From a virus: DNA of 64,000 bases. A model generated the notes under the pieces. The model had not been told where the DNA came from. It saw only the letters and a program-made list of their open reading frames with translations, and searched no databases. Below are positions 31,787 to 53,534 of this stretch, one piece after another (position 1 is the stretch's first letter; each line of letters starts with the position of its first letter). The position numbers and the translations under genes were made by a program. The DNA is taken from positions 29,493 through 93,492 of IMG/VR virus record IMGVR_UViG_3300025892_000012. One strand, 5' to 3'.

Positions 31787-32368
31787 ATGGCAACACTTAC
31801 GATTGGTGGAAAAACAGTAGTAACGCAGACAGGCACGGATGAGCCTATAATGACAAGTAATGTTGTGATGGATAATGTTAATGTGAACAATGCATTGGCA
31901 AGTGCTACGTTTCCTGCTGGACATATGTTAAGACATTTTTATGATGAATATAATTTTAATGGGTCTCCTGCTACAATCACAACAACCGCATCAAATTGGA
32001 GCGGTCTACAAATTGATATAATTAATCCTAATACAAGTAATTATTTATTTTTACAAATGTTTATTCCTGACGTATATTGTAGCGGTTCAAGTAATGGACT
32101 TGGAGGTGGTTTTGTTTATAGTACAAATTCTTTTAGTTCAGAATCAATTTTAGGTTCATCTGCTTGGTATTTTAATCAACATTCATGGACAAGTTCTGGT
32201 TCAAATTTAAATAATACTAGTTTGACTGTTAGAGTATTACATCCAACAAGTAGTAACTATTCAATAAGACCATATTTTCAGGCTTATAATGCAAGTTTAA
32301 GTATAGGACAAGGCAATAGTGGCAATAAGTCTATCGCAACATTATTTGCTATGGAGATACAAGGATGA
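31787..32368 (+). CDS. Receptor-binding tip, TFPAGH family
   Basis: MATLTIGGKTVVTQTG...ATFPAGH...LFAMEIQG. Confidence 0.75.
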   Translation: MATLTIGGKTVVTQTGTDEPIMTSNVVMDNVNVNNALASATFPAGHMLRHFYDEYNFNGSPATITTTASNWSGLQIDIINPNTSNYLFLQMFIPDVYCSGSSNGLGGGFVYSTNSFSSESILGSSAWYFNQHSWTSSGSNLNNTSLTVRVLHPTSSNYSIRPYFQAYNASLSIGQGNSGNKSIATLFAMEIQG

Positions 32369-32799
32369 AAACATATTTTGAAGTGGTTATAGATTTAGTA
32401 GGTATTGAAAATATTTGTAACGGACCATCCAATGGACCTGTATCTCAAATTAAATTTATAAATGGATTTGTAAACATACCCACTGAAGAAGAAATCCAAG
32501 CAAAGATAGCAGAACTTCAAGCAGCCGAACCACTACGTCTATTAAGAATAGAACGAAACCAAATTCTTCAACAATCTGATTGGGAAGTTCAACGCAATAC
32601 AGAACGCAACATTACAGATTCAAATCTAATAGACTATCGTAATGCACTCCGAGACCTTCCACAAGAAATAGCAAATGGAAACATTCCAGCACCTACACTG
32701 GATGAGAATGGAATGCTGGTGTTTGAACATTGGCCGAATCGCTATGAGATAAATATAGAAGATGAACCAACAGCAAACAATTCAGCTAATACAGTTTAA
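32365..32799 (+). CDS. Tail assembly chaperone with C-terminal extension
   Basis: AEPLRLLRIERNQILQQSDW...YRNALRDLP...FEHWP plus ~20 extra residues. Confidence 0.85.
   Translation: MKTYFEVVIDLVGIENICNGPSNGPVSQIKFINGFVNIPTEEEIQAKIAELQAAEPLRLLRIERNQILQQSDWEVQRNTERNITDSNLIDYRNALRDLPQEIANGNIPAPTLDENGMLVFEHWPNRYEINIEDEPTANNSANTV
32749..32755 (+). promoter_or_regulatory. Possible late promoter ATAAATA
   Basis: GATAAATATAG, identical to the element at 50482; ~45 bp before socket gene 32799. Confidence 0.4.
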
Positions 32800-33023
32800 T
32801 GCCGTCAAAAAGTAACGCCAAACAAAAATCAATTATAGTTGGTATTAACACAAAAACTTTTACCAATGATGTTGAAGTTGCTGAAAACTATTCTGCAATT
32901 CTCAGTGGTCCTGTAAGTGTACCAAACATCACTGTCAATGGTACTTTAAATGTGATCAACAATCTAAGTGTAGATGGTGATATTGTGATTGGTCCAAATG
33001 GTAATTTAAATCTAACAGGATGA
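32799..33023 (+). CDS. Socket connector
   Basis: YSAILSGPVSVPNITVNGTLNV...GPNGNLNLTG. Confidence 0.7.
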   Translation: MPSKSNAKQKSIIVGINTKTFTNDVEVAENYSAILSGPVSVPNITVNGTLNVINNLSVDGDIVIGPNGNLNLTG

Positions 33024-33024
33024 T

Positions 33025-33747
33025 ATGCCCAACGCAAGTTTGACAATAGATGGAACAGAAGTTATCAGCAAAGTAAATGGCTCAACTTCTATTCAAATTG
33101 ACACCGTAGAAAGTAATGATATAAAAAATGCACATGGAAATGTTGTTGGTTTTAGATCTGTTCAAATATTTGACACTGTTGGTACATCAACATGGACAAA
33201 GCCCGCTGGTGTAAATTATATAAAAGTTTATGTTACTGGCGGAGGAGGTGGCGGTGGTTCTCACAACCAAGATGATGCTCAAGGAGGTGGTGGAGCAGGG
33301 GGAACTACAATTAAATGGATTGATGTACGACAAGTAACAAGCGTATCTGTCACAGTTGGAGTTGGAGGTACACGTTCTATTGGTAATTCAGGAGGTGGTG
33401 GAGGTCCTGGAGGCACATCATCTTTTGGTTCGTATTGCTCTGCCACAGGTGGTGAAGAACCAGAAACTTGGGCAGTTGGTGGATATGGTGGTGTTGCTAC
33501 TGGAGGAGATATCAATTTGTATGGTAATGCAGGAATATGTGGCAACATAGATGGCGGTGGCAATGAAGAAAGTAGTGGAGTTGGAGGTGCTTCTTATTGG
33601 GGTGGAACAGGCAGAGGAGGTAGTGTTTGGGGTGCAAGGTCTAATCCAAATGGATGGGGATGTGGTGGTTCAGGCACCCATGTAAGCACTAATAATGAAG
33701 GTGCTGATGGATACAAAGGTGCTGTTATTGTAGAGGAATACGTATGA
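33025..33747 (+). CDS. Glycine-rich adhesin-like tip
   Basis: Plug MPNASLTIDGTEVIS; TWTKPAGVNYIKVYVTGGGGGGG...GGTSSFGSY...GAVIVEEY polyglycine domain. Confidence 0.75.
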   Translation: MPNASLTIDGTEVISKVNGSTSIQIDTVESNDIKNAHGNVVGFRSVQIFDTVGTSTWTKPAGVNYIKVYVTGGGGGGGSHNQDDAQGGGGAGGTTIKWIDVRQVTSVSVTVGVGGTRSIGNSGGGGGPGGTSSFGSYCSATGGEEPETWAVGGYGGVATGGDINLYGNAGICGNIDGGGNEESSGVGGASYWGGTGRGGSVWGARSNPNGWGCGGSGTHVSTNNEGADGYKGAVIVEEYV

Positions 33748-34079
33748 AAAAGGCGCTTATACATTTAGATAAAATTGTACAAGTTTCAGATTCCACATTT
33801 GAAGTTCATTCCAGTATGAAATGGGTAGACTGTCCAGATAATTGCACTACTAAATGGAAATATGAAAATGAACAATTCATTGAAAATGTTTATACAGATG
33901 AAGAAAAATTAAGAGATTTGAGATTAGCAAGAGGAACTAAGTTAAGAAAAACAGATTGGTGGGTTTTACCAGATAGAACTCCAACACAAGAGCAATTAAA
34001 CTATAGACAAGCTTTACGGGATATTACTAACACATATACATCACTTGATGATGTTATTTGGCCGGAGAAACCTGAATAA
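33744..34079 (+). CDS. Tail assembly chaperone
   Basis: FEVHSSMKWVDCPD N-domain; LRLARGTKLRKTDW...YRQALRDIT...WPEKPE. Confidence 0.85.
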   Translation: MKKALIHLDKIVQVSDSTFEVHSSMKWVDCPDNCTTKWKYENEQFIENVYTDEEKLRDLRLARGTKLRKTDWWVLPDRTPTQEQLNYRQALRDITNTYTSLDDVIWPEKPE

Positions 34080-36871
34080 TGCCATTCATCGGAGCACCGT
34101 CACCTAAAGAATTACAATCCATAGAAACCATTTCTGACCGTAAAACATATACGGGGGATGGCATAAAAACTATTTTTGGCGTTAGCTATGAATCCAATCA
34201 TATTAGTGTATTTCAAAACGGCTTAAAACTTATTGAAGGTATTGACTATAATATTGCATCTACTGGTCAGTATATAACATTTGTTATTGCTCCAGAAAGT
34301 GGAGATGTAATTGATTTAGTCGGTGCAAGTGGAGTTACTAATTTAGCACAATCAAGTTATTCAAGAGAAACATTTGTCTCTCTCGCAAATCAAACATCAT
34401 TCATTCTTTCAACAAATATAGATGATTCTTTTAGAACAAATGTATATGTAAATGGAATAAGATTAACAGAGACTGATTATACAATATATAATTCAAATAA
34501 TACACTTGAATTTAATTCTGCTCTTGCAGTAGATGATACTGTTGCTATAGAATTAATTAAACCTGGATTTAGAATAGTAGATGGTACTCTTGATGTTTCA
34601 AATCTAACACAAACAAGTTATGCTAGAGAAGCTTTTGAAAATATATCAAACACTTCCAATGTAATATTATCTTCAAATATTGATGCTAGTACAAGATTAA
34701 ATGTCTTTTTTAATGGTGCTAGATTACATGATACATCATTTACCATTGATGTTGCAAATAATAAAGTAACTTTCAATCAAAGTATATCAGCTAATGATGT
34801 AATAGAATTTGATATATTCAGTCCTGGTTTCAGAACGATTGATAGTGTATCAACAGGAATATCTAATTTTTCTCAATCTAGTTATAATGAAGAAGTGTTT
34901 CAAGCAATTGAAAACCAAACGGTCATAACACTTGATACAGACATTAATAGTTCTTATTTTATTAATGTATATAATAATGGTATTCGTTTAAATTTAGAAG
35001 ATTATACATTTAATTATTCTGCAAATACTATTACATTTACAGAAGCATTATTTGCTAATGATGTTATTACAGTGGACACATTTAGACCTGGATTTAGAAT
35101 ACAAGGTGTACGCACATTTCTTTCTGACTTAGTTGATGTAAATTCTACTGCTACTGCAAATCAAGTTCTGACTGCAGATGGAACTGGTAATTTCTATTTT
35201 GCTAATACAGCAGGCGGAAGCGGAAGTGTTTCACTAGCTTCATTCACGGCTAATGGTACAATCACAACAGGAGATACAGTAGCATTACGAATAGATAATG
35301 GAGAAATTGAAAAGATTGCACATCCCATAATAGCACAATATACAGAAGTTTCACAAACATTAAGTGAAGCAACTACAACTGGTACTACATTTTTTGATGT
35401 AGATTATGATGAAAACACAAGTTCTGCCATTGTTGCTCAAAGAAGTTCAGTTTCTCCTTTTAATGGATTAGTAAGTATAGGAACAGTGACTGAAACCTCA
35501 AATACGACCACAAACGGAGAAACCACAAGAGAAGTTGGTTTTAATTGGGGTACACCTGTAGCATGGAACTCAGACAATATTTCTAACACAGTTGTTGCAA
35601 TTGATACTGACCAAAATAAAGTAGTTATAACTTATATTAATAATAGTGATGCAATCAACATATATGCAGTAGTTGGAGATATAAGTGGAAATAGCATCAC
35701 ATTTGGAACTCCTCTTGAACTTTATACAACAAGGTCAAGATTTAATTCAATAGTATATGATACTAATTCAAATAAAATGGTGATATACTTTCAAGATTAT
35801 AATTCCTTTTATATGTACTATGCAGTATGTACGGTTTCTGGTACAAATATAACACTTGATTCACCAGTGACATTTATAGTAACTACGGCATCTAATGCAT
35901 ATTCAACTGCTCTATACATACCCGAATTAAATAAGCATGTTTTACTCTATCATGATACTTCTAATTATGTAACGATAATGATTGGTGAACTTGCTAATGG
36001 AACTATAACATGGGGGTCGGCAGTAACTGTACAATCTGCAGCCGGAATCACACCTATTTGCCGATATGATAGTGTAAATGAAAAACTACTTCTTTATATT
36101 GGTCAGAATACTGCAGACAGTAACTACCAGTCAGTATTTATTGGTACAATTACCAATAATTCTGTAACTTTTGGTTCTGCTATAAGAGTTAGTACTGCTA
36201 ATCCGTTTTCTGGCGTTGCTAATATTTTTGTTCATCATAAAGCCAGCAATAAATTTATAATTGGTGGTGCTGATGGAAATAATAGTTCTTATCCATATTA
36301 TAACGTAGTTCAAATAGATGATTCTGCTCCTAATGGATTATCAATTTCAGGTGTTACTGATATAGTTTCTACAGGTTCAACTTATTTTGGATTAGGTGGT
36401 GGTGTGTATGCGAGTAATTTTGAAAAAATATTTGTAGGTATACGTTTAGATAATACTACCAGACCTAATGTTTGGACATATAATCCAGAATATACATCAT
36501 ATGATCTAACAACAACAAATGCGACTAATTATATAGGTATAGCCAAAGATTCTGTAAACAATGGTCAAGTATCTGAAGTATTTTTAGTAGGTGATATTGC
36601 GGACAATCAAACTGGACTTACCGTAAATCAAAATTACTATTTAACTGGAAGTGGTTTGTTAACTACATCATCTACTTCTTATGGTTTAATTGGCAGAGCA
36701 GTATCAGATACATCTATACAACTATTACAAACTACATCAAAATCACTAACAGACCTAAATATAACAGATGGTACTTCTGGTCAAGTTCTCAAAACATATG
36801 GCAATAATGCATTCTATTTTGCTGATGAAGAAAACCTTAATGCAATACTTTATTCAATTGCTCTCGGATAA
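34079..36871 (+). CDS. Multidomain fibre: four ~85-aa repeats, propeller-like domain, IALG end
   Basis: MPFIG start; V(Y/F).NG.(R/K)L...Y...F...D.I...PGFR x4; ISGNSITFGTP-type blades; ends YSIALG. Confidence 0.75.
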   Translation: MPFIGAPSPKELQSIETISDRKTYTGDGIKTIFGVSYESNHISVFQNGLKLIEGIDYNIASTGQYITFVIAPESGDVIDLVGASGVTNLAQSSYSRETFVSLANQTSFILSTNIDDSFRTNVYVNGIRLTETDYTIYNSNNTLEFNSALAVDDTVAIELIKPGFRIVDGTLDVSNLTQTSYAREAFENISNTSNVILSSNIDASTRLNVFFNGARLHDTSFTIDVANNKVTFNQSISANDVIEFDIFSPGFRTIDSVSTGISNFSQSSYNEEVFQAIENQTVITLDTDINSSYFINVYNNGIRLNLEDYTFNYSANTITFTEALFANDVITVDTFRPGFRIQGVRTFLSDLVDVNSTATANQVLTADGTGNFYFANTAGGSGSVSLASFTANGTITTGDTVALRIDNGEIEKIAHPIIAQYTEVSQTLSEATTTGTTFFDVDYDENTSSAIVAQRSSVSPFNGLVSIGTVTETSNTTTNGETTREVGFNWGTPVAWNSDNISNTVVAIDTDQNKVVITYINNSDAINIYAVVGDISGNSITFGTPLELYTTRSRFNSIVYDTNSNKMVIYFQDYNSFYMYYAVCTVSGTNITLDSPVTFIVTTASNAYSTALYIPELNKHVLLYHDTSNYVTIMIGELANGTITWGSAVTVQSAAGITPICRYDSVNEKLLLYIGQNTADSNYQSVFIGTITNNSVTFGSAIRVSTANPFSGVANIFVHHKASNKFIIGGADGNNSSYPYYNVVQIDDSAPNGLSISGVTDIVSTGSTYFGLGGGVYASNFEKIFVGIRLDNTTRPNVWTYNPEYTSYDLTTTNATNYIGIAKDSVNNGQVSEVFLVGDIADNQTGLTVNQNYYLTGSGLLTTSSTSYGLIGRAVSDTSIQLLQTTSKSLTDLNITDGTSGQVLKTYGNNAFYFADEENLNAILYSIALG

Positions 36872-36879
36872 TTTAAGAC

Positions 36880-37179
36880 ATGGCTACATTTAAAAGAAAA
36901 GCTGCAACTGCAAATACTGCTGGCGTGATCGTTCATACAACACCCGCCGGTATTACTGCATTAATCATTGGTTTAGTTCTAGCAAACAAAGGTAGTAGTT
37001 CTGAAACTGCAGATGTAGATATTGACGGAACATATGTTGTGAAGAATGCACCGATTCCAGTTGGAAGTACACTTTCAGTACTTGATGGTAAAATGGTTGT
37101 TCAGCAAAATGAAATTATCACAGTCACTGCATCGGCTAACAATGTCATAGATGCCACAATCAGCATACTAGAATTATGA
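36880..37179 (+). CDS. ~100-aa adaptor family protein (copy 3)
   Basis: HTTPAGITALIIGLVLANK...APIPVGSTLSVLDGKMVV...ISILEL. Confidence 0.75.
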   Translation: MATFKRKAATANTAGVIVHTTPAGITALIIGLVLANKGSSSETADVDIDGTYVVKNAPIPVGSTLSVLDGKMVVQQNEIITVTASANNVIDATISILEL

Positions 37180-37454
37180 GTGGTTACTTAGGTTCAAAAA
37201 GAGCGGTCAACTTTGCTACAGTACAGTTGCCGATAAAATCAAAAGACATGGAAATCATCACAGAGCATGGTGCAATTGCTCAAAGAAATTCAATACCCGA
37301 AGCAGTAACTATAGATGAGGGTACAAATGTAGCTTTTTATGGTGATGTAACATTTGATTCTTTAGTCACAGTCAATGGAAATTTAATTGTGATTGGTGGA
37401 GACATTGACTTCAAAGGTGGTGCGGACATCGTAGGAAAATTAATCTATCGTTAA
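37176..37454 (+). CDS. Socket connector with YLG N-terminus
   Basis: MSGYLGS...TNVAFYGDVTFDSLVTVNGNLIVI...IVGKLIYR. Confidence 0.65.
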   Translation: MSGYLGSKRAVNFATVQLPIKSKDMEIITEHGAIAQRNSIPEAVTIDEGTNVAFYGDVTFDSLVTVNGNLIVIGGDIDFKGGADIVGKLIYR

Positions 37455-37456
37455 CT

Positions 37457-38110
37457 ATGCCTGACATAAACATAAACGGTTATCCATTTATATCTCAATC
37501 TGGAACGAATGTACCTGAAATTGACAATGTTAAAATAGGTGCAAGTGTTGATACTGTTTCCAATACAGGTGCAGGATATAAACCAGCAGAAGTTTGGCTT
37601 TCTACAACTGAAATTTCAGCACAAGATACTGTCATAAATCTACCATCTGGTTATAAAAAGTATCATGTTATTGGACATAATGTATTTTGGGGTGGAACGG
37701 CCTCAACTGGTGATATTAGAATGTACATGCGTTATAACAACAATACACAAGATGATACTGGTTTACAAATGAGTGAATGGTATAAAAGATTAGATGCTGC
37801 GGGATATGGGCAAGAAGTATGGGATGGTTTTGTTGTTATTTCAAATAATATGGGAACAGACCCAACAGAAAATTCTTTTTTTGATATTTGGTTAAATGGT
37901 TGTAATGAGGCCAATAAAACCAGGGGATATACAGGATATGGTATGTCCACTTATGGTCATACCTCAGACCAACATGCATACCATTATACTATTGGTTTTA
38001 GATCACAATTAACAGATGCTATAGATGGTTTTAGAATATATTTTCATCCCGATGATAATGCTATTACTTCTTATGGTGGCACAATAGTTGTAACAGGATA
38101 TACTTTTTAG
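37457..38110 (+). CDS. Receptor-binding tip (distinct fold)
   Basis: Plug MPDININGYPFISQSG; LPSGYKKY...IDGFRIYF...GGTIVVTGY. Confidence 0.7.
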   Translation: MPDININGYPFISQSGTNVPEIDNVKIGASVDTVSNTGAGYKPAEVWLSTTEISAQDTVINLPSGYKKYHVIGHNVFWGGTASTGDIRMYMRYNNNTQDDTGLQMSEWYKRLDAAGYGQEVWDGFVVISNNMGTDPTENSFFDIWLNGCNEANKTRGYTGYGMSTYGHTSDQHAYHYTIGFRSQLTDAIDGFRIYFHPDDNAITSYGGTIVVTGYTF

Positions 38111-38123
38111 GATTTAACATAAC

Positions 38124-38726
38124 ATGCCTGAACTTAAAATAAACGGTTACACATTTGCAACTCAAGCTGACGGCAACAATCCTGTGCTGGCGAGTAATGT
38201 TGATTTAGGTAGTGCTACGTTTCCTGCTGGGCATGTTCTACAGGTAAAAGGTGTAATTAGGAATACAGAATGGCAAGGACCAGATACAGTAAATGATAAT
38301 CATACGCTTTTTACAACTGACACTTTCACAACTACTGCACATACCAATACTGCATTTAAAGTAGAAATTACTCCAGCATCAAATGCTTCTAAATTTCTTG
38401 TTCAATATGCAATTAATATTGGTAACACAAGTACCGGCATAAGTTTAAAATTGCATCGTGGTAATGCTACATCACCAATTTATGGTTCTAGTGGTAGTAG
38501 AACACCACAGAATTCTGGCAAAGAATGGACAGGAGATAATAATCAATCGTCTCAAACTTACTATTCTATACTAGATGAACCTGCAACTGATAGCACATTA
38601 ACCTATTATCTTACTTATGTTTATTTTGGGGTTAAGCCTTGGTTTAACACAAATGTAAGCAGAAATGGTGCGGCGTATGATGATGCGTATACATCCACTC
38701 TTATTGTTATGGAGATATCAGGATGA
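38124..38726 (+). CDS. Receptor-binding tip, TFPAGH family
   Basis: MPELKINGYTFATQ...SATFPAGHVLQV...ITPASNASKFLV...LIVMEISG. Confidence 0.75.
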   Translation: MPELKINGYTFATQADGNNPVLASNVDLGSATFPAGHVLQVKGVIRNTEWQGPDTVNDNHTLFTTDTFTTTAHTNTAFKVEITPASNASKFLVQYAINIGNTSTGISLKLHRGNATSPIYGSSGSRTPQNSGKEWTGDNNQSSQTYYSILDEPATDSTLTYYLTYVYFGVKPWFNTNVSRNGAAYDDAYTSTLIVMEISG

Positions 38727-39100
38727 CCGACTTTAGGAATCAAGCAATCTATGCATTATCTCCGGATGGAGATTGGATGTGGGACGATGGTAATCTCATT
38801 TGGTGTAGCCCAAATGTTGCTCAACCAACACAAGCAGAAATAGATGCTAAATTAGCAGAACTAGAAGCAGCCGAACCACTACGCCTATTAAGAATAGAAC
38901 GCAACCGATTACTACAAGAAACAGATTGGGAAATTACTAGAGGATTAGAAGAAGGATTAAATATAGATAGTTTAAAAACATATAGAACAGCACTTAGAAA
39001 CTTACCACAACAAATAGAAGCTGGAGAAATAACAGCACCTACTTTGAATGACAATGGTATGTTAGTGTTTGAACATTGGCCGGAAAGAACAGATGCCTGA
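38723..39100 (+). CDS. Tail assembly chaperone
   Basis: AEPLRLLRIERNRLLQETDW...YRTALRNLP...FEHWP. Confidence 0.85.
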   Translation: MTDFRNQAIYALSPDGDWMWDDGNLIWCSPNVAQPTQAEIDAKLAELEAAEPLRLLRIERNRLLQETDWEITRGLEEGLNIDSLKTYRTALRNLPQQIEAGEITAPTLNDNGMLVFEHWPERTDA

Positions 39101-39695
39101 AATAAGAATTAATAATAAAGTATTAGTAACACAAACTGGAGCGGCTGAGCCTGTATTGGCGAGTAATGTTAATTTAGGTAGTGCTACGTTTCCTGCTGGG
39201 CATATTATTCAGACAGTACAACATGTATTTACTGGAACTGCATCTATTAGTTCAGTATCTACTGATAGTTTTGCATCATTTAATATTCCGTTTAGTAAAG
39301 GAATTACTCCATTTCTAAGTTCATCAAAAATTTTGGTGAGCGTTAATATAAGTTTAGGACATGATGCAGGTTCAATTCATACTGCAATATACAGAGATGG
39401 AACTAAACTCACAGGAGCAGCAGGTGACGTAGCAGGAAATAGGTTTGGTAGTACCACTCTTTCTAGATATGCAAATCCTGCATATGGTTTTGGTTGTAAT
39501 TCAATGAGTTTTAATTATTTAGATTCACCAACAATACCTACCACACCTATAGAAATTGTTTATGAAATAAAAGCAACTCTTGGTGCAAGTTATAATGATG
39601 GTATATATTTGAATCATAGTGCGAGTGACAGTACTAATATGGATTACACACCAAGAACAGCATCTTTTATGACATTATTTGAGATAGCACAATGA
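39093..39695 (+). CDS. Receptor-binding tip, TFPAGH family
   Basis: Start ATG 39093: MPEIRINNKVLVTQTG...SATFPAGHIIQ...MTLFEIAQ. Confidence 0.75.
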   Translation: MPEIRINNKVLVTQTGAAEPVLASNVNLGSATFPAGHIIQTVQHVFTGTASISSVSTDSFASFNIPFSKGITPFLSSSKILVSVNISLGHDAGSIHTAIYRDGTKLTGAAGDVAGNRFGSTTLSRYANPAYGFGCNSMSFNYLDSPTIPTTPIEIVYEIKATLGASYNDGIYLNHSASDSTNMDYTPRTASFMTLFEIAQ

Positions 39696-40054
39696 ATTAT
39701 CTAGCAAAAGCATTGGGGGAATTAAGACCACAAGAAGGCATGATTTATAATTCAGAATTACCACCAATTGCAAGTAAAATAATTTATGATTCTGAATCAA
39801 CTGTTAAAATTACACAAGAAGAATTAGATAACAAAATACAAGAAATTAAAGATAGGCAACCACTACGCCTGCTAAGAATAGAACGTGATCGATTGCTACA
39901 AGAAACAGATTGGCGTTTTCGTTCAGACCTAACACCATCTCAAGCATGGATTGACTATTGCCAAGCATTGAGAGATTTACCTGCAAACAGTGAACCACAA
40001 TTGAATGAGAATGGAGAATTGACAAACGTAACATGGCCGGAGAAACCTGAATGA
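39692..40054 (+). CDS. Tail assembly chaperone
   Basis: QPLRLLRIERDRLLQETDW...YCQALRDLP...WPEKPE. Confidence 0.85.
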   Translation: MNYLAKALGELRPQEGMIYNSELPPIASKIIYDSESTVKITQEELDNKIQEIKDRQPLRLLRIERDRLLQETDWRFRSDLTPSQAWIDYCQALRDLPANSEPQLNENGELTNVTWPEKPE

Positions 40055-40806: not shown

Positions 40807-40810
40807 ATTA

Positions 40811-44797: not shown

Positions 44798-45432
44798 AGG
44801 TAAGATGGCTAGTAAGGCTAAAATATTTTCAAGATTTATAAACAATTTAGATGTTGTAAATGACCAAATTATAATAAATACAGTAACGATTGATGATTCA
44901 TCAATAACAAATACTAACATGGGTGCAAATATTCAAATTGGAGGTTCTGATTTATCTAGTACTTTGTTAAGTGCAGCACCAATTGGTACAATATTAAATT
45001 ATGCCGCCGAAACAGCACCATTAGGATGGTTAATTTGTGACGGGTCCGCAATTTCAAGAACAACATACGTTAATTTATTTACAGCAATCAGCACAGCATG
45101 GGGTATAGGTGATGGTTCTAGTACATTTAATTTACCGAATTTACAAGGTGCTTTTTTAAGAGGTACTGGAACAGGGACAATAAACGCAAGAAATAAAACC
45201 GCAGTTGCTGTTGGAAGTTTCCAAGAAGACCAATTTCAAGGACACTATCATAGAGTTAGAACTTATGCAGGAACGGCAACTTATAGAATAAGTAGAAGAG
45301 CGGATAATGGTCCAACAGTTGCTTTTTACGATTCTGAAGTATTGCAGCCAACTCCCGATGGAACAAATGGTAATCCTAGATATTCCGATCAAACAAATCC
45401 ATATAATGCTTCTGTTCAATTTTGTATAAAAT
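44456..45432 (+). repeat. Identical blocks shared by the two collar genes
   Basis: 44456-44575=45099-45218 (120 bp); 44757-44792=45397-45432 (36 bp). Confidence 0.95.
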
Positions 45433-45437
45433 ATTAA
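44805..45437 (+). CDS. Phage tail collar domain fibre
   Basis: PIGTILNYA..APLGWLICDGSAISRT...; QGHYH motif. Confidence 0.9.
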   Translation: MASKAKIFSRFINNLDVVNDQIIINTVTIDDSSITNTNMGANIQIGGSDLSSTLLSAAPIGTILNYAAETAPLGWLICDGSAISRTTYVNLFTAISTAWGIGDGSSTFNLPNLQGAFLRGTGTGTINARNKTAVAVGSFQEDQFQGHYHRVRTYAGTATYRISRRADNGPTVAFYDSEVLQPTPDGTNGNPRYSDQTNPYNASVQFCIKY

Positions 45438-45444
45438 AGGTAAA

Positions 45445-45873
45445 ATGATAGCATATAATATACATAACGCAAATCAAGTTCCAAGGCAAGAATCTCCATT
45501 GGAGCCTGGAGTATGGTTAATGCCAGGACAATGCACTGATGTGGAGCCACCAGAATTTAATCAAGAAACACACACATGTAAATTCAATGGAGCCGAATGG
45601 ATTGTTGAATTAATTCCTGTTAAAGAAGAAGAGCCAACTCCAGAACCAATTCCAGCAATGGAATTATTAAGAATGGAAAGAGATTCTAAATTAGCACAAT
45701 CTGATTGGAGAGTCAACACTGATTATCCATATGATGACCAAGAAGCTTGGAAAACATATAGAGAGGAACTAAGACAACTTCCTCAACAAATAGAAACTGG
45801 TGTTATACCTGCTCCTACATTAGATGAAAATTATCAATTAGTTTTTGATAATTGGCCTGTTGAACCATCATAA
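45445..45873 (+). CDS. Tail fibre assembly protein (Tfa-like N-domain plus chaperone C-domain)
   Basis: ESPLEPGVWLMPGQCTDVEPP...FNGAEW; LRMERDSKLAQSDW...YREELRQLP. Confidence 0.8.
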   Translation: MIAYNIHNANQVPRQESPLEPGVWLMPGQCTDVEPPEFNQETHTCKFNGAEWIVELIPVKEEEPTPEPIPAMELLRMERDSKLAQSDWRVNTDYPYDDQEAWKTYREELRQLPQQIETGVIPAPTLDENYQLVFDNWPVEPS

Positions 45874-45876
45874 ATA
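45870..45876 (+). promoter_or_regulatory. Probable T4-like late promoter ATAAATA
   Basis: Opens an AT-rich intergenic gap ~35 bp before socket gene 45912. Confidence 0.5.
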
Positions 45877-45911
45877 TTGTATATAATATAAAACTTTCTT
45901 AACCAAAATAT

Positions 45912-46139
45912 ATGAGTACAGCAGAAGATTTAGCAACCTTTGCATCCGTTGGTGTCCTAACACATGATAGTTCTTTTGGATATAATCATGTAGTTGAAGC
46001 AAACACTAATGCATTGCTTATTGGACCAATAACACTACCTGGTATCATAAACGTACAAGAAAATGCAGCACTCACTGTATTTGGTGAAGTCTCTGTTACT
46101 GGTAGTTTAACTGTTGATGGCAACTTGGATATACGATAA
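45912..46139 (+). CDS. Socket connector
   Basis: MSTAEDLATFAS...NTNALLIGPITLPG...LTVDGNLDIR. Confidence 0.7.
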   Translation: MSTAEDLATFASVGVLTHDSSFGYNHVVEANTNALLIGPITLPGIINVQENAALTVFGEVSVTGSLTVDGNLDIR

Positions 46140-46732
46140 TGGCGGGAACTCTTAAAGTTGGTGGCGTAACACTCGCAACACATTCAGATGCAACTGGCTT
46201 GGTCAGTATGGATAGTAGCGTGACGTTTCCGTTTCCTGCTGGGGCGGTTATAAACTATCAGGTATCCTCTTTTAGAGGAGAATATACTAATGTTGGTGAA
46301 GGATTTTTTAATTCTTTTGATACAACTATTACTGCAAAATCTAACAATTCATGTTTCAAATATACAATGAGTTCCCAGTATGGGGTTAATTATGAGTATC
46401 ATTCAGCAAGTTACAGATTATACGTTCAAGTAAATAGTGGTTCTGATAATCTTATAAAAGATATAAATAATAATGATAACATAGCATCTTTTGGCAGTTA
46501 TCCCGATACTGGAAAGCTTCCATATCATCGTGATGCAAATCACGCAAAACCGTTTAGTTTTTCACACTTTGATTATACGACTCATAGTGCTGGAGATTCT
46601 ATGAAATACAAATTTTGGATAAGAACTCAAGGTGGTGATATTTTAGTGTTCAATCGAGCGCAAAATGGAACAGACCAAGACTACAGAGCAAGTGGAATTA
46701 CGACAATAATTATTGAAGAATTTGAAAAATAA
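46139..46732 (+). CDS. Receptor-binding tip, TFPAG family
   Basis: MAGTLKVGGVTLATH...VTFPFPAGAVI...TIIIEEFEK. Confidence 0.75.
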   Translation: MAGTLKVGGVTLATHSDATGLVSMDSSVTFPFPAGAVINYQVSSFRGEYTNVGEGFFNSFDTTITAKSNNSCFKYTMSSQYGVNYEYHSASYRLYVQVNSGSDNLIKDINNNDNIASFGSYPDTGKLPYHRDANHAKPFSFSHFDYTTHSAGDSMKYKFWIRTQGGDILVFNRAQNGTDQDYRASGITTIIIEEFEK

Positions 46733-46742
46733 AAAGGATTTG

Positions 46743-47099
46743 ATGTTTTTGGCAATCGCAATTCAAAATTTACAACCAGATGCTAGCTTCATAGTAGAGG
46801 ATAATAGTTACGATTCAATAATTTGGAGAAGTCAAGGTCTTGCAATTCCTTCTAAAGAAGAAGTGATGACTGAAGTAGACAGGTTAAAAAGTCTTGAACC
46901 ACTACGCCAACTCCGAATTCAACGCAACCAACTCCTCGCATTAACAGATTGGCGAATGACTGAAGATTACCCATTCAATGACAAAGAAGCATGGAAAACA
47001 TACCGACAAGCACTTAGAGATTTACCTGCAAACAGTTTTCCAGAATTAGATGAATTTGGTAATCTAACAAACATCACTTGGCCAGAGGAACCAGCATAA
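46743..47099 (+). CDS. Tail assembly chaperone
   Basis: AAGGA RBS before ATG 46743; EPLRQLRIQRNQLLALTDW...YRQALRDLP. Confidence 0.85.
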   Translation: MFLAIAIQNLQPDASFIVEDNSYDSIIWRSQGLAIPSKEEVMTEVDRLKSLEPLRQLRIQRNQLLALTDWRMTEDYPFNDKEAWKTYRQALRDLPANSFPELDEFGNLTNITWPEEPA

Positions 47100-47100
47100 C

Positions 47101-47664
47101 ATGACAGGGATTCTTAAAGTAGACCAAATAGCAGAAGCAAATTTGGGACAAGGTGTCAGACTGAATCATACTCTCAAGAATAGTTCTGATACAGAGATTA
47201 TAAGTGCTGTAGGAACGATTAGCAACGCAACGCTGGACTCAACGGTTACGTTTCCTGCTGGGAATATTGTTAATTTTAGTCAAGGATACTCAACTACTAA
47301 CACTGAAAAAACACTGTCATCAAGCTATGGTGCAACAGACACAAGCGTTACGTTGAGTGACATCACAACTGGAAATTCTATCTACATTATTTATTCATTT
47401 TTAGCTGACGTTGATGGAGACATCCATTCAACTATTTATGTTGATTCAACAGATGATTTAGCTTTATCAGGAGATGTAGCCTTGACACAAACGACAGATG
47501 CTGGGTCTGGTCGATTTTTAGTTAATAGTGTGGGGTCAGTTTTTTACACTTCTACTAGTACCAGTCATACTTTTACAATTTACGCAAAAACAGTAGTAAC
47601 TCCTTGTTCAATTCGGGATGACAGAATCAAAAGTCAAATTATGGCAATGGAGATTCAAGTATAA
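47101..47664 (+). CDS. Receptor-binding tip, TFPAG family
   Basis: MTGILKVDQI plug; VTFPAGNIV...QIMAMEIQV. Confidence 0.75.
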   Translation: MTGILKVDQIAEANLGQGVRLNHTLKNSSDTEIISAVGTISNATLDSTVTFPAGNIVNFSQGYSTTNTEKTLSSSYGATDTSVTLSDITTGNSIYIIYSFLADVDGDIHSTIYVDSTDDLALSGDVALTQTTDAGSGRFLVNSVGSVFYTSTSTSHTFTIYAKTVVTPCSIRDDRIKSQIMAMEIQV

Positions 47665-48050
47665 TGACTGCTCATAAACAAAAAAGAAATGCTATAAATG
47701 CGATAAGTCCCAACGCAAAGTTTACTTTATTTGGATTAACACTGAACTGGCTTGATGAAAATCAGAGAAAACCAACCGAAGAAGAAATCCAAGCAAAGAT
47801 TCAAGAACTCCGAGCCGCAGAACCACTACGCCAACTCCGAATTCAACGCAACCAACTCCTAGCATCAACAGATTGGCGCATGACAACAGACTATCCATAT
47901 GCAGACCAACCTGAATGGGAAGACTATCGTTTTGAGTTGAGAGAATTACCACAACGTATTGCGAATGGTGAAGTGCCTGCTCCTACACTGGATGAAAATG
48001 ATATGCTGATGTTTGATGAATGGCCACTAAAACCGGGAGAGACTGCATGA
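47664..48050 (+). CDS. Tail assembly chaperone
   Basis: AEPLRQLRIQRNQLLASTDW...YRFELRELP...FDEWP. Confidence 0.85.
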   Translation: MTAHKQKRNAINAISPNAKFTLFGLTLNWLDENQRKPTEEEIQAKIQELRAAEPLRQLRIQRNQLLASTDWRMTTDYPYADQPEWEDYRFELRELPQRIANGEVPAPTLDENDMLMFDEWPLKPGETA

Positions 48051-49015
48051 GTAAAGTAGTAGGATTAGGCACACTTGCAGACGATATATCAGTTAGTAAT
48101 GGTGAAGTCACTATTAATGATTTAAAACCTAGCCAAAGTATGATGTTTCGGAATAAGATTATTAATGGAAACTTTGATATTTGGCAACGTGGGACAAGTC
48201 AGACGAGTAATGATTATGGAAGTGTAGACAGGTGGCGTTTAGGGAACGTTGGAAGTTCCAAAACAGCATCACAACAATCCTTTACTCTTGGGCAAACAGA
48301 GGTTCCAGGCAATCCAAAATATTATCTAAGACATGTGGTAACAAGCGCAAATGGGTCTGGAAATTTAGTTGTTGCTTTTCATAGAATTGAAGGAGTTGGA
48401 ACATTAGCTGGGAAAACAGCAACATTAAGTTTCTGGGCAAAAGCTGATTCTAATAAGAATATTGCAACTGAGGCAGAGCAAACGTTTGGAACTGGAGGAT
48501 CTCCATCTAGTTCAGTTAATTCAATTGGGGTCACTACATATAGTCTAACACCTTCTTGGCAAAAATTTACAACCACTATTTCCATTCCATCTATTAGTGG
48601 AAAAACTATTGGCACAGATGGTAATGACTATTTTCAAATAATATTTTGGTTTGAGGCAGGTTCAACTTACAATTCCAGAACCAACTCACTAGGCAACCAA
48701 TCTGGAACCTTTGACATTGCCCAAGTCCAACTTGAAGAAGGCACAGTCGCAACTCCGTTCGAGCATCGTCCAATTGGGGTAGAACTAGGGTTGTGTCAGA
48801 GGTATTACCAGAAGATTTCTGGTAATTTGTACGGGACACAGGGCAGTGCAAGTTATGCGGTTTGGCAATTTAAGGAAACATTTAGAGCGCAACCTACTTG
48901 TACTGGCAACAACTCTGGTTCTGTTGTTGATTACCGAAATACCGATTTTGTTTCATGTTACTATAATGGTGGATATGCTAGTTGGACTAATGCAACTGCC
49001 GAAGCAGAGTTATAA
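48047..49015 (+). CDS. Fibre, FRNKIING family
   Basis: ATG 48047 (ATGA overlap); FRNKIINGNFDIWQRGTS...AQVQLEEGTVATPFEHR...LCQRYY...AEAEL. Confidence 0.8.
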   Translation: MSKVVGLGTLADDISVSNGEVTINDLKPSQSMMFRNKIINGNFDIWQRGTSQTSNDYGSVDRWRLGNVGSSKTASQQSFTLGQTEVPGNPKYYLRHVVTSANGSGNLVVAFHRIEGVGTLAGKTATLSFWAKADSNKNIATEAEQTFGTGGSPSSSVNSIGVTTYSLTPSWQKFTTTISIPSISGKTIGTDGNDYFQIIFWFEAGSTYNSRTNSLGNQSGTFDIAQVQLEEGTVATPFEHRPIGVELGLCQRYYQKISGNLYGTQGSASYAVWQFKETFRAQPTCTGNNSGSVVDYRNTDFVSCYYNGGYASWTNATAEAEL

Positions 49016-49018
49016 AAA

Positions 49019-49225
49019 ATGAGTTATACATATAAATTACAAGCAAATTACATTGATCCAATGGGTGAACTTCGGATACCTGATTTTATTATAAGAATTG
49101 AAGACAATGCCTATATCCCCTTCGACCCAGCAAACACTGACTACCAAGAATATCTTGCTTGGCTAGCCGAAGGTAATGAACCAGAACCACCAGATGAACC
49201 ACAACAAGAGGAACCGCAAGCATGA
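49019..49225 (+). CDS. Small chaperone-like partner (YQEYLAWLAEGNEPEP family)
   Basis: IPFDPANTDYQEYLAWLAEGNEPEP. Confidence 0.75.
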   Translation: MSYTYKLQANYIDPMGELRIPDFIIRIEDNAYIPFDPANTDYQEYLAWLAEGNEPEPPDEPQQEEPQA

Positions 49226-50268
49226 CCAAAGCTAGAAACATAGCAGAATTTGCAGACGATTTAAGCGTATCAAATGGTGAGGTTTCCATTGCCGATTTGA
49301 AACCTAGCCAGAGTATGATGTTTCGGAATAAGATTATTAATGGGGATATGCAAATTGACCAGAGAAATGCTGGAAGTAGTGTGGTTTTGTCAAATGCAAA
49401 TAATCTTCCTGTTGATAGATGGAGAGCATATGCGGCATCTGGTTCAGGACATACTGCACAACAATCAACAGATGTGCCTAGTGGAGTAGGGTTTAGTAAT
49501 TCTGTAAAACTTACAGTTGGAACGGGTGCGAGTCCGGCAGGAAGTAATTTGAATATCTTTTATCATGTAATTGAAGGATACAATATTTCTGATTTAATGT
49601 TTGGTTCAACGAACGCTAAATTTGTTACTCTTTCATTTTGGGTTAAATCTACTGGCTTGTCTTATCCAGCAACATTTTCAGCAAGTTTGCAAGATGGGGC
49701 AATTCCAATTGGAACAGGCATTCCTAAAGAATATACTATAAGCACTTCAAATACTTGGGAATACAAAACCTTAACCTTTATTGGTGATGTTAACACTGGA
49801 TCAACTTATTCAAATACCAATGGTAAGGGATTACATATCACTTTTGACCTTGGTTCTGGTTCTGACTACGAAGGGTCTGCTAATGTTTGGTCATCTGGAA
49901 ATATAAAAAGAACATCTTCAAGTGTTAAACTCATTGAAACATCTGGAGCAACATTATACATCACCGGAGTCCAGCTTGAAGAAGGCTCCGTTGCCACTCC
50001 GTTTGAGCATCGTCCTTATGGGTTGGAGTTAGGGTTGTGTCAGAGGTATTATGAAAAATTTGAGGGGGCTATGTATAGTGGAGATGACTCTGGTTCTGGT
50101 AATCATTATTCAATTGTCTTTTTTAAAGTTGAAAAAAGAGATGTCCCAACGACTGCTTATAGTCATTTGTACGATACTATTCAACTAATTACTAAACAAA
50201 AGTTAAGTCTATATAGGTCAAACTATAATACTTCAGTTGGCGATTTACAGATTATAGCGGAATTATGA
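49222..50268 (+). CDS. Fibre, FRNKIING family
   Basis: MTKARNIA; FRNKIINGDMQIDQRNAG...GVQLEEGSVATPFEHR...LCQRYY. Confidence 0.8.
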   Translation: MTKARNIAEFADDLSVSNGEVSIADLKPSQSMMFRNKIINGDMQIDQRNAGSSVVLSNANNLPVDRWRAYAASGSGHTAQQSTDVPSGVGFSNSVKLTVGTGASPAGSNLNIFYHVIEGYNISDLMFGSTNAKFVTLSFWVKSTGLSYPATFSASLQDGAIPIGTGIPKEYTISTSNTWEYKTLTFIGDVNTGSTYSNTNGKGLHITFDLGSGSDYEGSANVWSSGNIKRTSSSVKLIETSGATLYITGVQLEEGSVATPFEHRPYGLELGLCQRYYEKFEGAMYSGDDSGSGNHYSIVFFKVEKRDVPTTAYSHLYDTIQLITKQKLSLYRSNYNTSVGDLQIIAEL

Positions 50269-50483
50269 TTATTAAAACAGCAAGATTGCAGAATACTATA
50301 TCCCCAATATCTGGGGAGATTATTGAAAGATTAGTAGTTATTACTGATGTTAATGATAATAAAATGACAGTACCATTTGCATCGGGGAACACAGAATATC
50401 AAGAGTATCTAGCTTGGTTAGCAGAAGGCAATGAACCAGAACCATCAGATGAACCACCGCAAGAGGAACCACCCGTTACATGA
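50265..50483 (+). CDS. Small chaperone-like partner (YQEYLAWLAEGNEPEP family)
   Basis: VPFASGNTEYQEYLAWLAEGNEPEP. Confidence 0.75.
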   Translation: MIIKTARLQNTISPISGEIIERLVVITDVNDNKMTVPFASGNTEYQEYLAWLAEGNEPEPSDEPPQEEPPVT

Positions 50484-50489
50484 TAAATA
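50483..50489 (+). promoter_or_regulatory. Probable T4-like late promoter ATAAATA
   Basis: GATAAATATAG opening the gap before 50528. Confidence 0.5.
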
Positions 50490-50527
50490 TAGTAAAACAA
50501 TTTTACTCAATTTAAATTAACAATAGT

Positions 50528-51643: not shown

Positions 51644-52243
51644 ATGGCAACGAGTATAATAAAGACTGATGAGATTAGAAGACTAAACGATACAGTGTTG
51701 ATGAGTGATGGTGTGTTGAGTGGGAATGTTACGTTTCCTGCTGGGCATATTATTCAAACATTTCATAGAACATATCAAATTGAAAACTCTGTCAATTATA
51801 ATGGCACAACAGCAATAACTGTTAAAAGTGATGGGACTATAAGTGGTTCTAGTACAGAAGAGTTTTATGTTGATGCATCAAATATTACATCTGGGAACAA
51901 GATATTTTTGATGTTTACTTTTTCTTATAGCATATATGGTTCTGGGGTGGATGCAATTTTTGGATCATTTGGTATTTGTCGAGATTCATTGACTGTTGAT
52001 AGCAATGGAGATCCCACTAATGATTTAGTAATTAATCAAACTGCGAATGATATACTTGGGGTTAACCAACAGGCAGGAACTAACATTCAGCATCAAGGTA
52101 TGTTAACTTTAACAGCATTTGATACTCCTACAGGTGCTAGTCATAGATATAAACTTACTTATCAAACAGCTAGTTCAAATTATTATTTTAAAGTACGACC
52201 TCAAGCTATAAATAACTTTTTCGCTTTTGAGGTACAACAATGA
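51644..52243 (+). CDS. Receptor-binding tip, TFPAGH family
   Basis: MATSIIKTDEIRRLN...VTFPAGHIIQ...FFAFEVQQ. Confidence 0.75.
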   Translation: MATSIIKTDEIRRLNDTVLMSDGVLSGNVTFPAGHIIQTFHRTYQIENSVNYNGTTAITVKSDGTISGSSTEEFYVDASNITSGNKIFLMFTFSYSIYGSGVDAIFGSFGICRDSLTVDSNGDPTNDLVINQTANDILGVNQQAGTNIQHQGMLTLTAFDTPTGASHRYKLTYQTASSNYYFKVRPQAINNFFAFEVQQ

Positions 52244-52587
52244 ATTTTTTAATTGAAGCAATTAATTTTTTTACACCCAATGCTGTTGTTTCTCTTAGTG
52301 AAACTAAAATAGTTGAATGGCATGATTCTCGGCCTCAACCAACCGAAGCAGAAATCCAAGCAAAGATTGCAGAATTAGAAGCAGCCGAACCACTACGCCT
52401 ATTAAGAATAGAACGCAACCGATTGCTACAAGAAACAGATTGGCGTTTTCGTTCAGACCTAACACCAAGTCAAGCATGGTATGAGTATTGCCAAGCACTC
52501 AGAGACTTGCCTGTAAATAGTGAACCACAACTAGATGAGTTTGGAAATTTAACTAACGTAAATTGGCCTACACCACCGGAGAATTGA
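52240..52587 (+). CDS. Tail assembly chaperone
   Basis: AEPLRLLRIERNRLLQETDW...YCQALRDLP...WPTPP. Confidence 0.85.
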   Translation: MNFLIEAINFFTPNAVVSLSETKIVEWHDSRPQPTEAEIQAKIAELEAAEPLRLLRIERNRLLQETDWRFRSDLTPSQAWYEYCQALRDLPVNSEPQLDEFGNLTNVNWPTPPEN

Positions 52588-52590
52588 TAG

Positions 52591-53184
52591 ATGCCAAGTG
52601 CTTTAAGAATAAAAGAACTAAGAGATTTGAATGATAATGTAATCATGAGTGATGGTGCGTTAGGCGCAAATGTCACGTTTCCTGCTGGGCATGTGATTCA
52701 GACAAAGGTGATTAAAGATTCTACTGCTAGAGGTGGATTTGGCAGTCAAGGAGACACATACACTGGAGTTAGTATTACATTTGATAACAATTTGTCTAGT
52801 ACAAACTCAGTTGTCTTAATTGAAGCAAGTCTGCAAATTGATATACAAAATGACACTGGATATGGCTTTACTTGGGGGGCATCATCTACAACATTATCGG
52901 GTAATAAAATAGGAGTTGAGGGTAGTACAATTACAAATTTTTCTAGAGGCGCTCCACCTTATATTAACGGATCTCGGCACGGAGATCATGTAAGTTTTAT
53001 AACCTGTGATTCAAACATTATTTCTGTTACACCGAAAACTTATTATTTGTGGGTTATAAATTCTTACTCTACAAATATTTATATAAATACTCATTTAAAT
53101 GTAAATCAAGGACAACAATTTGCCACTAACTTTTGGACTGGATCTTCAACAGCAGTTTATAAATTAACAGAGATTGCAGGATGA
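52591..53184 (+). CDS. Receptor-binding tip, TFPAGH family
   Basis: MPSALRIKELRDLN...VTFPAGHVIQ...KLTEIAG. Confidence 0.75.
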   Translation: MPSALRIKELRDLNDNVIMSDGALGANVTFPAGHVIQTKVIKDSTARGGFGSQGDTYTGVSITFDNNLSSTNSVVLIEASLQIDIQNDTGYGFTWGASSTTLSGNKIGVEGSTITNFSRGAPPYINGSRHGDHVSFITCDSNIISVTPKTYYLWVINSYSTNIYINTHLNVNQGQQFATNFWTGSSTAVYKLTEIAG

Positions 53185-53534
53185 ATAAACTAATAGCAAT
53201 TAATGAATTAGGTTGTGGCCCAGTCGCTATTGATTCAGATGGGAATGTTACAGCATTGTACAATCAACAATTACCTACTGAAGAGCAAATCCAAGCAAAA
53301 ATAGCAGAACTAGAAGCAGCAGAACCACTACGCCTATTAAGAATAGAACGCAACCGAATCCTCCAACAATCAGACTGGATGGCAAATTCAGATGTTGTAA
53401 TGACAGATGAATGGAGAGCATACCGACAAGCACTCCGAGACTTACCAGAAACACAAACACCTGCACTAGATGATAATGGCAATCTAATCAATGTAGAATG
53501 GCCAACACCACCAGGAGAAACAAGTGTCAGTTAA
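53181..53534 (+). CDS. Tail assembly chaperone
   Basis: AEPLRLLRIERNRILQQSDW...YRQALRDLP...WPTPP. Confidence 0.85.
   Translation: MNKLIAINELGCGPVAIDSDGNVTALYNQQLPTEEQIQAKIAELEAAEPLRLLRIERNRILQQSDWMANSDVVMTDEWRAYRQALRDLPETQTPALDDNGNLINVEWPTPPGETSVS

Follow-up and report, generated by a model that had tools for sequence, protein, structure and literature searches.

The stretch of DNA analysed here (the window) is the right-hand 64 kb of the 93.5-kb viral record IMGVR_UViG_3300025892_000012, a linear fragment estimated by CheckV to be about 52% complete. The window is the host-recognition region of the phage and contains an array of small trimeric-type fibre tips, most of them with their own Phage_tail_APC chaperone gene next to them. 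Seven of these tip–chaperone pairs share two short DNA words, anchor 1 (CGTTTCCTGCTGG) in the tip gene and anchor 2 (CCACTACG) in the chaperone gene, and the segment between the two words, which crosses the gene boundary, is the subject of this analysis.

The upstream 17 kb, ahead of the array, contain the T4 core structural set (large terminase, sheath, portal, prohead protease, scaffold and gp23-type capsid), with PHROG matches of E = 1e-58 to 1e-181 for the T4-type genes g17, g18, g20, g21, g22 and g23, and the capsid protein is 53–56% identical to those of T4-like cyanomyophages and the OM43 phage Melnitz. On the basis of these structural genes and the capsid identity, the source phage is classified as an uncultured marine T4-like myovirus. 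The window encodes 12 Phage_tail_APC chaperones, seven of which carry anchor 2. All three chaperones that were scanned exceeded the PF16778 gathering cut-off (scores in Table 1), and the chaperones also match PHROGs named 'tail fiber assembly'. The tips matched only generic tail-fibre groups among the phage families, and scanning two of the seven anchor tips and the related tip at 29675 gave no gp37/gp38-family Pfam match, with one sub-threshold hit only.

Anchor 1 occurs in seven exact copies, all on the + strand (Table 1), and in an eighth + strand copy with one mismatch at 29751 (shuffle mean 0.01). Anchor 2 is likewise present in seven exact copies on the + strand, with a mean of 0.31 in shuffled sequence. 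The open reading frames with anchor 1 are 187–208 aa long (tips of about 195 aa), the next open reading frame always holds anchor 2, and the anchors sit about 90–165 nt inside their genes. Anchor 1 is read as (A)CG TTT CCT GCT GG, encoding TFPAG about 30–55 residues into the tip, and anchor 2 is read as CCA CTA CG, encoding PLR in the middle of a conserved chaperone block. This block is about 105–108 nt long, and anchor 2 is centred in it and not placed at its edge.

The initial annotation had described seven tips with anchor 1 followed by seven chaperones with anchor 2, spaced by about 575–675 bp, with barely alignable sequence between the anchors and with uncommon codons kept in them. These observations were confirmed: the counts were exactly seven and seven, the gene starts that it quoted were right and the anchor spacing was 574–673 nt. 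In the window self-BLAST, the tip genes matched each other only in short stretches over the N-terminus and anchor 1, and the tip bodies compared as proteins were mostly less than 30% identical (at most about 30–40%), with many pairs undetectable. In the window, ACG accounts for 5% of the Thr codons, CTA for 11% of the Leu codons and CGN for 25% of the Arg codons. The further claim that related pairs encode similar peptides with ordinary codons was true for the chaperone of the pair starting at 29675 but not for its tip, which has the anchor core TTTCCTGCTGG at 29753 (KFPAGH), with Lys (AAG) instead of Thr. Among the relatives, anchor 1 was also found with chaperones lacking CCACTACG and in chaperone-less tips.

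Silent-site conservation of the anchors

To collect relatives, an 18-nt anchor-1 scan was performed, which gave 25 true tip genes with several types of N-terminus on contigs of 34–48% G+C, and an independent set of 80 loci was fetched via C-terminal chaperone peptides, with more than 400 chaperone loci seen. All comparison contigs were metagenome assemblies.

The word-scan loci contained 19 further FPAG sites chosen without the DNA word, and CCT followed by GCT was used in all of them. At the FPAG sites of the chaperone-selected loci, CCT and GCT were each found in 20/20 cases, GGG in 13/20 and a preceding codon ending in G in 16/20. With both sets pooled, the sites chosen independently of the DNA word thus showed CCT GCT in 39/39 cases, compared with background frequencies of 0.34 for CCT, 0.31 for GCT and 0.10 for GGG in the same genes. 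The GGG codon was preferred at anchor 1 though it makes up only 4–10% of the Gly codons, and silent sites five to seven codons downstream were free to vary. Anchor 1 is clearly fixed at the nucleotide level, far beyond protein constraint. A general codon-pair bias of Pro-Ala-Gly was rejected because the other Pro-Ala-Gly tripeptides of this genome use mixed codons.

A different picture was obtained for anchor 2. In the 80 loci, the Pro of the EP(L/M)R motif was encoded by CCA, CCC, CCG and CCT, the L/M position by ATG, CTA, CTG and TTA, and the Arg by CGA, CGT, CGC, CGG and AGA. Among the seven window chaperones, codon identity at identical residues was 0.66 in the central block versus 0.54 expected, and 0.48 in the C-half versus 0.51 expected. 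The exact 26-nt word of the central block in its window version was found elsewhere only in contig L003, which is from the same phage, and the version of anchor 2 present in the window is therefore lineage-specific. Anchor 2 is not fixed; it is conserved beyond protein constraint modestly and within this genome only. The best identity of the central block was 0.86–0.90 inside the window versus 0.81–0.83 outside, and homogenisation of the block within the genome is weakly suggested. The synonymous check proposed in the initial annotation for both anchors thus gave conservation beyond protein constraint for anchor 1, whereas the codons of anchor 2 drift normally in the family. The idea of two DNA anchors as boundaries stands for anchor 1, with its fixed silent sites, but not for the 8-mer of anchor 2, in place of which the whole block of about 108 nt works.

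Changes of relationship within single chaperone genes were visible inside the window. In chaperone 5 (47664), the 51 nt upstream of anchor 2 were 82% identical to chaperones 1 (32365) and 6 (52240) and 41% identical to chaperone 4, and the 54 nt downstream of anchor 2 were 96% identical to chaperone 4 (46743). Chaperone 6 was 98% identical to chaperone 2 (38723) over the 54 nt from anchor 2 to a TGG codon and, past this codon, 88% identical to chaperone 3 (39692). In the self-BLAST, chaperone 3 matched chaperone 6 at 85% over 181 nt, starting 2 nt before anchor 2. Judged from these identities, the window chaperones are mosaics, with the nearest relative changing at anchor 2 and at the TGG codon.

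Cassette exchange in related contigs

Each of 72 tip–chaperone pairs was divided into the N-terminus and body of the tip and the N-half and C-half of the chaperone, and these four parts were clustered. Body cluster 33 was found with a single cluster of chaperone N-halves and with three clusters each of tip N-termini and chaperone C-halves, and a second body cluster behaved similarly. Eight N-terminus clusters carried at least two bodies, mostly with a constant chaperone C-half, and the single-linkage N-terminal cluster comprising the MATSIIKTDE and MPSALRIKE types was found with 16 different bodies in the relatives.

One cassette, made of a tip body and a chaperone N-half (664–692 nt, 95–97% identical), was present in three slots on three viral contigs, with a different tip N-terminus and chaperone C-half in each slot. 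In contig L023, the flanks on both sides were those of slot 1 of contig L015, and the middle 664 nt, which run from anchor 1 to 30 nt beyond anchor 2, corresponded to L015 slot 2 (96.8%). In contig L040, the flanks corresponded to L015 slot 5 and the cassette was that of L023, 692 nt long at 95.1%; the overlap amounted to 35 nt at anchor 1 and to 108 nt in the central block. In L023 and L040, the overlap that holds anchor 1 at the left junction was 29–35 nt, with a crossover window of only about 14 nt of perfect identity. The right junction was dispersed within 108 nt of homology at 85–95%.

Differences between cassettes were also observed at the end of the window. Positions 172–1826 of contig L024 correspond to window positions 62346–64000 (99%), and positions 1–127 of contig L029 to window positions 63874–64000 (100%). 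Beyond the window end, both contigs contain further tip–chaperone pairs. Two adjacent cassettes differ between them: in both, one after the other, identity is lost at the end of anchor 1 and regained no more than about 40 nt from anchor 2. The identity of L024 and L029 ends at L024 position 1848 (L029 position 149), at anchor 1, and the window contig ends about 22 nt earlier, so that its end is probably an assembly break at a polymorphic cassette.

Of the 48 non-redundant identity breakpoints, anchor 1 had 8 at a distance of no more than 30 nt (binomial p = 5e-7), and the central block contained 5 (p = 0.004). The direction was the predicted one, with left boundaries in 7/8 cases at anchor 1 and right boundaries in 4/5 cases in the central block. 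The three-slot cassette and the differences between L024 and L029 support the earlier proposal that the exchange unit crosses the gene boundary and keeps the tip body with the chaperone N-half. The breakpoint comparison suggested with it showed the expected enrichment at anchor 1 and in the central block but no confinement to them, as seen in L003 and at the C-termini of larger fibres.

Predicted structures and module layout

An AlphaFold2 (AF2) monomer model of tip 2 (38124), based on a 50-sequence alignment, had a pLDDT value (predicted local distance difference test) of 76.7. It showed an N-terminal hairpin, the FPAGH linker at residues 33–37 and a beta-sandwich at residues 38–198. The best Foldseek match of this model was the C-terminal TNF-like domain of Pgp3 from Chlamydia (E = 9e-7, probability 1.0), with a TM-score of only 0.43–0.47, and weaker matches comprised C1q, BclA, 4-1BBL/TNF heads, the lambda gpJ receptor-binding domain and a cyanophage short-fibre domain. 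The AF2 model of chaperone 6 (52240; pLDDT 92) consisted of a small N-domain, a single long helix at residues 36–65 and a C-domain. The long helix corresponds to the conserved block and joins the two small domains. Over 56 chaperones, the mean pairwise identity was 0.22 for the N-half, 0.57 for the central block and 0.49 for the C-half.

According to these data, each pair consists of four modules. The first is the slot-specific tip N-terminus, presumably the virion-docking piece; the second, a hypervariable head with a predicted TNF/C1q-like fold, presumably the receptor binder; the third, the hypervariable small N-domain of the chaperone; and the fourth, the slot-typical chaperone C-half. The second and third modules together make up one exchangeable cassette. 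Its left junction is the (T/V)FPAGH linker, encoded by G-TTY-CCT-GCT-GGG-CAT with silent sites fixed across many phages, and its right junction the block of about 108 nt encoding the long central helix of the chaperone. Co-inheritance and co-variability suggest that the chaperone N-domain is specific for its own head.

Feature list and neighbouring genes

The tip and chaperone genes of the array are listed in Table 1.

Table 1. Tip and chaperone genes of the window; positions are counted from its first nucleotide.
Feature	Position	Strand	Remarks
Tip 1	31787..32368	+	193 aa; anchor 1 31908-31920; identical copy in L003
Chaperone 1	32365..32799	+	144 aa, Phage_tail_APC; anchor 2 32530-32537; PF16778 29.4 bits (cut-off 26.6)
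Tip 2	38124..38726	+	200 aa; anchor 1 38218-38230; structure modelled
Chaperone 2	38723..39100	+	125 aa; anchor 2 38876-38883; PF16778 33.7 bits
Tip 3	39093..39695	+	200 aa from ATG at 39093; anchor 1 39187-39199
Chaperone 3	39692..40054	+	120 aa; anchor 2 39860-39867
Tip 4	46139..46732	+	197 aa; anchor 1 46230-46242
Chaperone 4	46743..47099	+	118 aa from ATG at 46743; anchor 2 46899-46906
Tip 5	47101..47664	+	187 aa; long N-terminus of other type; anchor 1 47249-47261
Chaperone 5	47664..48050	+	128 aa; anchor 2 47823-47830; mosaic
Tip 6	51644..52243	+	199 aa; N-terminus of MATSIIKTDE type; anchor 1 51732-51744
Chaperone 6	52240..52587	+	115 aa; anchor 2 52390-52397; structure modelled
Tip 7	52591..53184	+	197 aa; N-terminus of MPSALRIKE type; anchor 1 52676-52688
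Chaperone 7	53181..53534	+	117 aa; anchor 2 53325-53332
Eighth pair of the same kind	29675..30641	+	tip 29675-30274, chaperone 30267-30641; chaperone PF16778 58.1 bits, ordinary codons
Chaperone-less tip	30641..31225	+	CCTGCTGG (VPAG) at 30719
Further tip start at contig end	63922..64000	+	N-terminus MAESILKTDE... as read in L024 and L029

In tip 4, a 6-nt tandem duplication of GTTTCC inside the anchor (46222–46242) gives FPFPAG and looks like slippage within the conserved word. Two further in-frame CCTGCTGG words (PAG) were found at 5478 and 19359 in large structural proteins. One of them reads TTPAGIRQ and lies 207 residues from the C-terminus of a 482-aa protein; it could represent the same kind of junction in a larger fibre.

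Short open reading frames of 74–92 aa (24088–24342, 28907–29137, 32799–33023, 37176–37454 and 45912–46139) are located 5' of the runs of tip genes. They share a C-terminal beta-strand-like motif and have homologues at the same position in L003, L015 and L023. The larger fibres ending in ...AEL (40811–41830, 48020–49015, 49222–50268 and 55017–56492) form one family with patchy DNA similarity, reaching 75% DNA identity between 48143–48798 and 55500–56164, and several identity breakpoints in the relatives fall at the DAEL stop of such fibres. The region 44183–45873 includes two tail-collar-domain paralogues of 204 and 210 aa, sharing a 218-nt block at 87% identity and identical C-terminal ends. 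The twelfth chaperone, at 45445, lies 3' of these paralogues and is devoid of anchor 2. Matches to the Mtd_N domain (N-terminal domain of the major tropism determinant) were found above the Pfam cut-off at 54307–55002 and below it at 63381–63920.

Relatives of the region were also sought outside the collected loci. Megablast against isolate phages with window positions 31000–40100 gave no match, and an isolate-phage protein search with one tip and one chaperone returned weak matches only (Synechococcus phage ACG-2014j at 36% and a marine single-cell virus fragment). The scan of a bacterial and archaeal genome collection with the chaperone profile revealed no relative and therefore no host clue. 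A viral-contig scan with the 371-aa protein encoded upstream of cassette 6 found distant relatives only, and the contigs found in a metagenome scan with a 930-aa protein were short or about 80% identical, none of them extending to the cassettes at 38–40 kb.

Discussion

The most likely explanation of these data is short-homology recombination between co-infecting T4-like phages at two junctions, with the tip head and the front half of the chaperone behaving as one cassette. Besides being replaced in place, cassettes pass between slots and between phages. The recombination-dependent replication machinery of the phage would be the probable agent acting on the two homologies during co-infection, with invasion in the longer right-hand block and resolution or a template switch at the short left word. 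The homology at anchor 1 amounts to only about 14–30 nt, so a silent change might remove a cassette or a slot from the exchange pool, and selection may keep the codons in this way. Repeated exchange would also overwrite the junction again and again. Because the left junction is tight (about 14–30 nt) and the right one is dispersed over 108 nt, homology appears to drive the process, and not a specific site present in two copies. The interpretation given in the initial annotation is in this sense partly supported.

Several observations weigh against this explanation. Contig L003 is 99.9–100% identical to the window over 5.2 kb, in which the body of the tip starting at 30641 (30695–31224) is replaced by an unrelated 496-nt body. 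This swap has one breakpoint behind codon 18 of the N-terminal motif and the other at the stop codon, which is also the start of the next tip; it occurred at another conserved motif and without the anchor word. The ends of other swaps coincide with the C-termini of larger fibres or fall inside big fibre genes. When sequence is replaced in place, a breakpoint coinciding with the border of the divergent segment follows in part from the definition; the decisive cases are only those of slot-jumping, which are shown by two cassette families only. None of the seven bodies of the window was found in any fetched locus except that of tip 1, in the same context in L003, and the exchange of these seven was therefore deduced from the relatives and from the mosaics inside the window. 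A perfectly identical stretch of about 14 nt is very short by the standards of ordinary homologous recombination. No RecA/UvsX, GIY-YIG, HNH, resolvase, integrase or reverse transcriptase was found in the 93-kb record. The absence of a recombinase, already noted for the window in the initial annotation, holds for the whole record but says little, because the record is a structural fragment of about 52% of the genome with the replication and recombination module outside it. The relatives being metagenome assemblies, chimeric joins also have to be considered; these seem unlikely because the shared cassettes are 3–5% diverged and come from different samples.

A dedicated enzyme encoded elsewhere in the genome is an alternative to short-homology recombination. 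Anchor 1 could be recognised or cleaved by such an enzyme, for instance a site-specific recombinase, a homing-type nuclease or a hotspot factor, with an exchange comparable to that of shufflons, invertible fibre segments or integron cassettes. The invariance of an 11–16-nt word at silent positions across contigs of 34–48% G+C and several N-terminus types is the usual signature of a protein-binding site, the left junctions fall within about 30 nt, and known fibre switches cross over at the constant/variable boundary, as at Mu gix and R64 sfx. All anchor copies are, however, direct repeats on one strand, the word lacks dyad symmetry when inspected by eye, the right junctions occupy no second copy of the site but are scattered across about 100 nt of ordinary homology, and swaps occur at other motifs devoid of the word; neither resolvase nor integrase, GIY-YIG or HNH genes are present in the 93 kb, which is half a genome. 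Such an enzyme-read site is considered improbable. It is similarly doubtful, if perhaps slightly less so, that a phage-encoded enzyme reads G-TTY-CCT-GCT-GGG-CAT as a genuine recombination signal and that the array is a dedicated system for the exchange of host-range cassettes between co-infecting genomes; if true, it would be a marine T4-like analogue of shufflons or integrons. An invertase or shufflon layout was rejected for the fragment, with 8/8 anchor-1 copies, 7/7 anchor-2 copies and all cassettes on the + strand. Invertase and integrase readings were rejected only as far as the 93-kb fragment goes, which gave no resolvase or integrase match but comprises just half of the genome. A diversity-generating retroelement was rejected for the fragment as well: there was no RVT_1 match, the self-BLAST revealed no long near-identical repeat pair, and the variation consists of unrelated bodies and not of adenine-specific positions.

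No special device would be needed if the pairs were old paralogues, the anchors protein motifs retained through shared ancestry and the mosaics products of ordinary homologous recombination. Anchor 2 fits this proposal, as EP(L/M)R uses all synonymous codons in the wider family and the codon identity of the central block (0.66 versus 0.54 expected) could reflect a shared sub-lineage of the seven chaperones; the breakpoints at other conserved motifs agree with it too. For anchor 1, it is already contradicted by the 39/39 use of CCT GCT against backgrounds of about 0.34 and 0.31 with variable silent sites five to seven codons away, by the preference for the rare codons ACG, GTG and GGG at the flanks of the word and by the presence of one cassette in three non-homologous slots with the junction inside the word, and the overall probability given to this explanation is low. 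The fixed nucleotides might also serve expression, for instance through mRNA structure or by pausing translation at the domain boundary, which would aid folding of the head with the chaperone. Rare codons (ACG and GGG) do flank the word at a domain linker, but the invariant CCT and GCT are not rare, and recombination junctions within the word would be left unexplained. The predicted folds around the seven copies contained no common hairpin, so a shared RNA structure at anchor 1 was rejected, and a role in expression is judged very improbable.

The proposed exchange by short homology shares features with known systems of fibre variation. In the G segment of Mu, the C segment of P1, the Min segment of p15B and the R64 shufflon, a variable C-terminal part of a fibre or adhesin is exchanged together with its chaperone, and a DNA word lies at the constant/variable boundary. 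These systems use inverted sites and a dedicated invertase or the Rci recombinase, within one genome. The array resembles them in the variable fibre end and chaperone forming a unit and in the conserved coding word at the constant/variable boundary. It differs in having direct repeats on one strand, in the lack of a recombinase gene in the fragment, in the homology block of about 108 nt at the right junction and in the exchange between genomes and between slots.

In the gp37/gp38 distal tail-fibre locus of T-even phages, exchanges occur in or near conserved motifs (Trojet et al. 2011, PMC3157838), and adhesin swapping by recombination at conserved motifs was attributed to T-even phages by Tetart et al. 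(1998, as cited in PMC3157838). As in that locus, hypervariable receptor-binding segments lie between short conserved motifs of a T4-type phage and the fibre end is linked to an accessory protein. In contrast to gp37/gp38, with glycine-rich motifs between the hypervariable segments of the gp38-type adhesin, and to which the two anchor tips and the 29675 tip scanned showed no sequence relation in Pfam, the chaperone belongs to PF16778 and the tip is predicted to fold as a TNF/C1q-like sandwich. Moreover, a dozen or more small tip–chaperone pairs per genome take the place of the single T-even locus, the boundary of the exchanged unit falls inside the chaperone gene, silent positions do not vary at one of the junctions, and cassettes pass from one slot to another, non-equivalent one. 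Short repeated DNA cassettes known as PeSLs mediate shuffling in T4-type genomes (2010, PMC2839356). Here too, short repeated elements flank variable modules of T4-type phages and act as recombination points; unlike PeSLs, which are intergenic, consist of a promoter and a stem-loop and surround non-essential genes, the anchors are in-frame coding words in structural genes and have no shared stem-loop. A hypervariable fibre island, the host recognition cluster (HRC), was described for pelagimyophages and cyanomyophages (Zaragoza-Solas et al. 2020, PMC7029224), and population-level structural variants were reported in that island (PMC12379486). The window, too, is an extended hypervariable island of fibre genes within the structural region of a marine T4-like phage; the passages of PMC7029224 and PMC12379486 retrieved by term search deal with the island and its variants and mention neither tip–chaperone cassettes nor junctions or a fixed DNA word. 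The array is set apart from all compared systems by its protein family, the many pairs, the cut at the chaperone helix, the movement between non-equivalent slots and one junction fixed at silent sites.

A phage's host range is set by its receptor-binding tips, and how these are exchanged without breaking fibre assembly is a central question. In the array, each slot keeps the docking end of the tip and the rear half of the chaperone, and the head travels jointly with the front domain of the chaperone. The junctions fall within a linker and a single helix and so leave the folded domains intact. It is an old dispute whether phage modules are joined at special conserved linkers or by random illegitimate recombination followed by selection, and silent sites fixed at one junction provide rare concrete evidence on this point. 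The polymorphism of the cassettes explains why assemblies of such phages break at these points, and the anchor word can serve as a simple DNA marker when marine viromes are searched for exchangeable tip genes.

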